Translations under genes and position numbers: made by a program
Origin: Escherichia coli
Lineage (GTDB): Bacteria; Pseudomonadota; Gammaproteobacteria; Enterobacterales; Enterobacteriaceae
Assembly (NCBI RefSeq): GCF_003334335.1
Contig: NZ_QOWQ01000055.1
DNA length: 19,253 nt
Reading direction: 5' to 3' (one strand)
Shown here: one piece after another, positions 1,313 to 1,518 of the stretch
How the letters are laid out: the number at the start of each line of letters is the position of its first letter
Position numbering within the stretch: the stretch's first letter is position 1
The notes under the pieces: generated by a model
What the model was told of the DNA's origin: nothing
What the model saw: the letters and a program-made list of their open reading frames with translations, nothing else
Database searches by the model: none

Positions 1313-1518
1313 CCCCTGCGCTCACTACCATGGCTCTTTACCACAGCAGCCGGGGTTGTTTGGGACCGACTTCCGACAGCAGATCCCGGTGGGCCTGCCA
1401 CCATCTCTTCACAAGCTTATGCTTATTACATGCAAAACGTCCCGTTTTGCATCTTTGTGCCTACGGCACACCGGTGATCTTTCCCTGATGAGGGATATAT
1501 TAACTATTGAACATTAGC

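Follow-up and report, generated by a model that had tools for sequence, protein, structure and literature searches.

The island and the segment beside rhs

The window, by which we mean the whole 19,253-nt stretch of Escherichia coli DNA that was analysed (contig NZ_QOWQ01000055.1), is the aspV-yafV island of this species. The island carries, in order, an ISAs1 transposase gene, the segment under study (1313-1518), an immunity-like ORF, an N-terminally truncated rhs core gene, T6SS remnants, yafT, tRNA-Asp and dnaQ. Read along the minus strand, the rhs C-terminal tip is followed by the immunity-like ORF (1991→1599) and then by three nested left ends of ISAs1 (H-rpt) elements. The features around the segment are collected in Table 1.

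Table 1. Features in and around the segment at 1313-1518
Feature	Position in the window	Strand	Evidence
E.c.I9 stub, 5' part of ribozyme domain I	1313..1471	-	RF01999, match to full-length intron, identity with REL606, Table S3 of PMC3522654
Hairpin, domain I stem-loop	1430..1452	-	Intron nt 20-42; exact sequence, MFE folds, Sinorhizobium meliloti alignment
Intron 5' exon, first 16 nt of ISAs1/H-rpt left terminus, CAGGGAAAGATCACCG	1472..1487	-	Repeats 1299-1312 exactly over 14 nt
Left end of an older, diverged ISAs1-family element, 78 nt (outer direct-repeat copy)	1488..1565	-	64/79 columns against inner IS nt 1-78
Left end and leader of the complete inner ISAs1, from terminal CAGGGAAAGATCACG	1169..1312	-	Alignments; adjoins intron nt 159
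ISAs1-family transposase gene	75..1168 (ATG at 1168)	-	RefSeq annotation of identical/near-identical loci

The minus-strand rhs core gene consists of two separate ORFs (1969-3951 and 3984-6041) and adjoins a C-terminal fragment of the T6SS gene IcmF. At about 4010-4020 it misses 7 nt (GGTCGCC) with respect to strain 720632, a deletion that probably frameshifts the gene. When the window was compared with strain GDSC2BY4G, which is 99.9% identical, a single gap was found over 14.5 kb. Two tRNA genes are also encoded on the minus strand. That at 11178-11251 is tRNA-Asp (aspV) according to the annotation of near-identical loci and forms the island boundary, and that at 19181-19253 is cut by the window end.

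The original prediction, made from the letters alone, described the segment as GC-rich, apparently non-coding and bracketed by direct repeats, and this description was confirmed. The GC content of 1313-1518 is 0.515, compared to 0.296 (1171-1312) and 0.312 (1519-1598) in the flanks, and a profile in steps of 100 nt reaches its maximum, 0.62, at 1301-1400. The 72-aa ORF that had been noticed is present on the plus strand (1299-1517) and has no family match. More generally, an NCBIfam search with the three ORFs over 1313-1518 returned no match, and no RefSeq annotation lies under the segment among the genomes listed. The direct repeats (1267-1303 and 1519-1555) share 92% identity across 37 nt and can be extended to 1267-1312 and 1519-1565, with 42 of 47 columns identical; a looser homology covers 78 nt in total (64 identical columns out of 79). 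We also found a second repeat that the prediction did not contain, GTGATCTTTCCCTG, which is exact over 14 nt (1299-1312 and 1474-1487) and is the key to the anatomy of the locus. The coherent unit within the segment is 1313-1471 on the minus strand (GC 0.553), and positions 1472-1518 are IS-end sequence outside of this GC-rich element.

The GC-rich unit matches the 5' end of group II intron E.c.I9

A covariance-model search, which had been proposed along with the prediction, solved the identity of this unit. Rfam scans of 1000-2000 and 1200-1650 at permissive E-values revealed the family RF01999 (group-II-D1D4-2) at 1402→1282, on the minus strand only, with 81.8 bits for a gathering score of 36 (E ~1e-16) and an alignment to model positions 1-118. 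The final ~26 of these positions fall on IS-end sequence (1312→1282) that resembles the next intron hairpin by chance, and the true intron homology ends exactly at 1313. The sole other permissive match, a Tetrahymena snoRNA model, was considered noise (18 bits against a threshold of 130).

Comparison with the full-length intron of strain ATCC 8739 gave the same answer over the whole unit. Results showed that 157 of the 159 nt are identical (98.7%) to nt 1-159 of that intron. The minus strand begins with GTGTG (1471→1467), in agreement with the GUGYG consensus of the 5' boundary, and the junction is the same as in the full-length copy. Intron copies are named by an identity of >90% at the nucleotide level to the reference intron (PMC3522654), and under this rule the 98.7% identity to NC_010468 2411599-2413485 gives the stub the name E.c.I9. 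The stub is moreover base-for-base the sequence of E. coli B REL606 at NC_012967 242510-242668 (L006 4511-4669), and the entire interval 1150-1620 of the window is identical in that strain; BL21 has the identical locus too. The REL606 interval appears in Table S3 of the survey by Leclercq & Cordaux (2012, PMC3522654), which uses the intron name of the Zimmerly database, E.c.I9, and their Tables S2/S3 describe 'E.c.I9-tr2' as a 159-bp fragment of class D in another Rhs region; the identity listed for this E.c.I9 fragment is 98%. Because both the sequence and the coordinates are identical in REL606, the stub is the published E.c.I9-tr2, and the feature is thus already known, named and catalogued. 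The two agree in sequence, interval, length (159 bp), locus (Rhs/aspV-yafV) and host (ISAs1), and differ in context alone: the strain of the window retains more of rhs and of the T6SS remnant, in a place that is taken by an IS1 in REL606 and E. coli C.

Taken together, these data identify the window from 1471 to 1313 (minus strand) as nt 1-159 of the group II intron E.c.I9, a stub left in an ISAs1 end beside rhs. As an explanation of the whole segment, a 5' stub of E.c.I9 that was truncated at an ISAs1 terminus and is now a relic is very probably the right one. A correct annotation is the main value of this result, as RefSeq is blank at this place and the segment could be confused with a small RNA gene or with an orphan Rhs module.

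Both of these readings had in fact been put forward in the original prediction. One saw in the segment what is left of a displaced cassette, Rhs C-terminal or immunity. The position would suit it, directly downstream of the rhs C-terminal tip and of the immunity-like ORF, where orphan toxin/immunity modules commonly gather, and ATCC 8739 has orphan RHS fragments upstream of its H-rpt. On the contrary, no translatable frame over the segment showed homology to Rhs tips or immunity proteins, neither for the three ORFs in NCBIfam nor in the RefSeq annotation of the genomes listed, and the DNA is fully accounted for, all 159 nt by the group II intron at 98.7% identity and the remaining 47 nt by the ends of IS elements. 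We give an Rhs origin practically no credence. The second reading, a small structured RNA, was right in one respect, since the segment derives from a highly structured RNA and its hairpin is conserved. What did not hold is the idea of a free-standing sRNA gene: the segment carries, on the opposite strand, a 159-nt stub of a ribozyme/retroelement of 1887 nt.

The hairpin is a stem-loop of intron domain I

The hairpin that first drew attention to the segment, GCAAAACG-TCC-CGTTTTGC, lies exactly at 1432-1450 as claimed, and it lengthens to a perfect 10-bp stem with a loop of 3 nt (ATGCAAAACG/CGTTTTGCAT). Perfect matches for an 8-bp stem were found 13 times, at ~9 distinct sites, in the whole 19-kb window, whereas mononucleotide shuffles gave 1.6 ± 1.6. 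The stem can thus be taken as real, but it is not the only one of its kind in the window. The hairpin is present in the minimum-free-energy fold of the stub as well as in that of the full-length domain I, and the stub as a whole folds at -69.2 kcal/mol (z = -3.8 versus shuffles). At the aligned position, the Sinorhizobium meliloti relative of the intron has a hairpin of unrelated sequence, AGTTCA-GTA-TGAACT. As the structure is kept in Sinorhizobium relatives with unrelated letters, the hairpin is a conserved domain I stem-loop of the intron and not a terminator.

A role of the hairpin as terminator or promoter was also rejected on the basis of a scan of 1100-2050. On both strands of this interval the hairpin was not called as a terminator, and it is followed by no T-run; the same scan revealed no promoter-like site inside the stub. 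We also noticed that intron nt 34 (window 1438), within the hairpin, is an A in the full-length copy of ATCC 8739, creating a C·A mismatch, and a G in both types of stub (see below), which makes the stem perfect.

Relatives outside E. coli

The closest DNA matches outside E. coli were to group II introns of Sinorhizobium, within their domain I, with 78-80% identity over ~100 nt, and they lie ~400 nt upstream of an annotated ltrA. These introns have the GTGTGC 5' end of the stub and, at the equivalent position, a hairpin with compensating sequence. The Sinorhizobium meliloti relative may be RmInt1, the matched copies being known here by their place upstream of an annotated ltrA. RmInt1 is the archetypal class D intron and resides in ISRm2011-2. 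As a class D intron, E.c.I9 would be RmInt1-like; the class is assigned from phylogeny and structure, with an RmInt1-like ribozyme and a protein without endonuclease domain. RmInt1 resembles E.c.I9 in living inside an insertion sequence, but it belongs to another species and another host IS and is a full-length active retroelement, whereas the window holds only a 159-nt stub. Group II introns have reportedly been described in H-rpt elements, by Knoop & Brennicke in 1994 and by Dai & Zimmerly in 2002.

The assignment of E.c.I9 to bacterial class D is that of Table S2 in PMC3522654, from which we take it; the similarity of its domain I to the Sinorhizobium introns supports this class without being decisive for it.

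Nested ISAs1 left ends and the homing site of the intron

The bracketing repeats and the ISAs1 flanks, to which the original prediction attached importance, were indeed relevant. The direct repeats are IS left ends, and the 14-nt repeat is the IS terminus, present once as the 5' exon of the intron and again where the inner IS starts. Along the minus strand, the first of the three left ends is the outer copy of 78 nt, which is cut after ...CCTCAT by the terminus of the next IS. Its similarity to the left ends of other ISAs1 copies in E. coli covers exactly these 78 nt, with 79-84% identity. No intact element with a left end identical to these 78 nt was found among the matches listed, which are to ordinary ISAs1 ends at 79-84% and also include a 90% variant of the same locus. 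The second left end is the 16-nt terminus CAGGGAAAGATCACCG; it corresponds to the upstream half of the site into which E.c.I9 homes, and the intron starts directly after it. The third belongs to the complete inner ISAs1, which starts with CAGGGAAAGATCACGTAACG… at 1312→ and includes the inner copy of the direct repeat (1267-1312).

The assignment of these ends to the ISAs1 family rests on the RefSeq product, 'ISAs1 family transposase', and on the left terminus CAGGGAAAGA..., which is the inverse of the right terminus ...TCTTGCCCTG at RhsE. The H-rpt/ISAs1 elements of Rhs loci (ISEc1-like) are likewise found on the 3' side of the rhs locus, and the bracketing repeats are their left ends. Compared to the usual arrangement, the window has three nested left ends (78 nt, 16 nt and complete). 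Compared to an intact element, the 3' end of its transposase gene is cut by IS1414, and the REL606 copy is without the usual right terminus ...TCTTGCCCTG.

The break of the transposase 3' end lies near position 74, at the end of IS1414, and the right end of the ISAs1 copy is either outside the window or disrupted. Most genomes match the window from position 75 onward only. In strain GDSC2BY4G the transposase gene of IS1414 (IS256-like) ends at 1-74, where it overlaps the ISAs1 transposase gene at its 3' end, so the 3' end of the ISAs1 copy of this strain is interrupted. In REL606, the sequence of the aspV-yafV locus (L006 5940-5990) diverges as soon as the transposase stop codon is passed (…CGTAGTAATACCCCGAC…). 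This copy seems to have no right terminus and is probably immobile. At RhsE of O157 (L002 5520-5545), the ISAs1 ends with ...CGTAATCTTGCCCTG, a right terminus inverse to CAGGGAAAGA.

The outer IS end also contains a terminator-like site at 1543-1558 on the minus strand, made of AGCATCACGTGATGCT and then GATTTTTTGC, ~40 nt past the stop of the immunity-like ORF. A weaker terminator-like version (GATCACGTAACGCTGATTTTTTG) is present in the inner IS end. ISAs1 left ends may carry a terminator against read-through.

Concerning the homing site, E.c.I9 is described as targeting 'Rsh IS (= ISEc1-5)' at a specific position (PMC3522654). In ATCC 8739 the full-length intron lies between CAGGGGAAGATCACG and AGAAGTACACTTTTTGTACTAAATAATTCGC…, ~16 nt inside the ISAs1 left end. 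The stub of the window occupies this E.c.I9-specific position in the Rhs IS, and the same 5' exon, an ISAs1 terminus, precedes the window stub, the stubs found at RhsE and the full-length copy. The 5' exon of the window (CAGGGAAAGATCACCG) has one base more than that of the full-length copy (CAGGGGAAGATCACG): it reads CACCG in the window and CATCG at RhsE, versus CACG in ATCC 8739. The 3' exon junction of the window stub was lost with the deletion. The inner IS has a candidate homing site of its own (CAGGGAAAGATCACG|TAACG), which is unoccupied.

Missing parts of the intron

The complete E.c.I9 of ATCC 8739 (L005 5486→3600, NC_010468 2411599-2413485) is 1887 nt long. It starts with GTGTG, has RF01999 in domain I, carries at nt 488-1810 an ltrA gene annotated as reverse transcriptase/maturase, and ends with RF00029 (domains V-VI). 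In the window, RF00029 was matched nowhere, and among the ORFs listed for it there is none of the size of the reverse transcriptase ORF of the full-length intron; the near-identical loci have no reverse transcriptase annotation either. The stub extends over roughly the first third of domain I, and domains II-VI are absent. Judged by these parts, the window holds an intron fragment and not an intron. Because it is without domain V/VI and without a reverse transcriptase, the stub would be unable to splice or to retrohome, and it would encode nothing. Considering what is missing, it is almost certainly an inert relic, carried along passively by the ISAs1/rhs locus.

Origin of the truncation

A second E. 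coli locus carries a comparable stub. At RhsE (ydcC-pptA), O157:H7 and other strains have an intron of the same lineage that breaks off at nt 193; it is followed by TAGGGAAAGATCATC…, which is again an ISAs1 left end from its nt 1. Both types of stub therefore stop precisely where nt 1 of an ISAs1 left terminus follows. This terminus reads CAGGGAAAGATCA after nt 159 in the window and TAGGGAAAGATCA after nt 193 at RhsE. The two have G34 and C152 in common with respect to ATCC 8739 and only one mutual difference across 159 nt. As G34 and C152 are common to both, they belong to one intron lineage. The intron at RhsE, E.c.I9-1/tr1, is full-length in ATCC 8739 and reduced to 193-bp stubs in O157:H7, IAI1, SE11 and E24377A. 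As in the window, its homing site is in the ISAs1 left terminus and its truncation falls exactly at the ISAs1 terminus. On the other hand, the RhsE stub is at another chromosomal locus and is 34 nt longer (193 nt), the sequence variants of the inner IS differ between RhsE and the window (TAGGGAAAGATCATCAAAAGTTCAC... against CAGGGAAAGATCACGTAACGCTGA...), and tandem short IS termini lie upstream of the stub at RhsE versus the diverged 78-nt IS end in the window. In the O157:H7 strain G5295 (L002 3975-4016), the tandem termini found 5' of the 193-nt stub are CAGGGGCAGATT CAGGGAAAGATCA CAGGGAAAGATCATCG. This pile-up of left ends at RhsE suggests repeated ISAs1 events at or near the own left end of the element.

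From the anatomy of the junctions, we infer the following order of events. A copy of ISAs1 would once have hosted a mobile E.c.I9 that had retrohomed ~16 nt inside the left terminus of the IS, and another ISAs1 would later have been joined by its first nucleotide to position 159 of the intron. Most likely, this second ISAs1 would have inserted into the intron, and a later recombination between it and the IS downstream would have removed intron nt 160-1887; alternatively, an IS-mediated adjacent deletion could have given an equal product. Today, intron nt 1-159 are left, preceded by the 16-nt IS terminus and followed by a complete ISAs1. Understood in this way, the locus is a clean example of nested mobile elements, in which a group II intron would have homed into an IS and then been decapitated by the same IS family.

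Two other origins of the break were considered. A deletion by microhomology that converts a 193-nt stub into the 159-nt stub was ruled out: the junction retains the intron CAGGGG together with the complete IS terminus CAGGGAAAGATCA, and for this reason a whole IS end must have been joined at nt 159. The stub could also have been made by abortive or incomplete retrohoming of E.c.I9, with no later truncation by an IS. Truncated copies of group II introns are common in bacteria, and 111 group II intron fragments, in 55 distinct copies, were found in Enterobacteriales (PMC3522654). However, the break coincides to the base with the ISAs1 terminus at both loci. In target-primed reverse transcription, cDNA synthesis begins at the 3' end of the intron, and abortive events lose the 5' end. 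Such events would spare 3' pieces, and here it is the 5' end that was retained, with an intact 5' exon junction. Abortive retrohoming is thus a most unlikely source of the stub, and we retain the truncation by ISAs1.

A further copy with the same layout was noticed on plasmid pC27A-2 (CP044307.1, L004 3940-4400), where the outer IS end, the 16-nt terminus, a ~159-nt stub and the inner IS follow each other at ~85% identity. Small indels are numerous in this copy, and it lacks an intact transposase ORF. It may be an old diverged copy or reflect a low-accuracy assembly, and we do not rely on it.

Distribution of the stubs in E. coli and possible retention

The 206-bp segment was matched in 2,853 of 5,426 complete E. 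coli genomes, and the full architecture of the window in 871 of them. Some part of E.c.I9 is present in 2,703 of the 5,426 genomes, and at least 80% of the intron in 84. Stubs in ~2,700 genomes and full-length copies in 84 are the pattern expected of decayed relics. These counts update the survey of 90 genomes published in 2012 (PMC3522654).

We also considered whether the stub could have been exapted as a functional RNA or cis-element. It might form a stable structured leader, or an insulator that separates the rhs/immunity transcript from the transposase gene of ISAs1; it might also act as a small RNA or as a decoy of the protein that the intron encodes. The fold of the stub is more stable than that of shuffles (the z-score given above), stubs are kept at two loci in about half of the complete genomes while full-length copies are rare, and both stubs carry the G34 that makes the hairpin perfect, where ATCC 8739 has A34. 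A stable fold is nevertheless expected from the ribozyme origin. The near-100% identity among genomes is equally high in the flanks, and for this reason it reflects recent shared ancestry and not selection. Moreover, the scan described above found the hairpin not to be terminator-like and the stub to be free of promoter-like sites, and the lengths of the stubs differ (159 and 193 nt), being set only by where the IS end landed. We therefore judge exaptation to be very unlikely.

A more specific proposal is that a role as RNA explains why about half of E. coli has kept the stub itself, in addition to its host IS, at two loci linked to Rhs. The stub would then insulate the ISAs1 transposase from rhs-immunity read-through, act as a small RNA, or be a decoy that titrates the intron-encoded protein. 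If the decoy were real, reinvasion by E.c.I9 would be limited. We consider retention for such a role extremely improbable and keep to an inert relic. In the published view, the group II introns of Enterobacterales are mostly encountered as dead fragments while free homing sites persist, and the case of the window fits this view.
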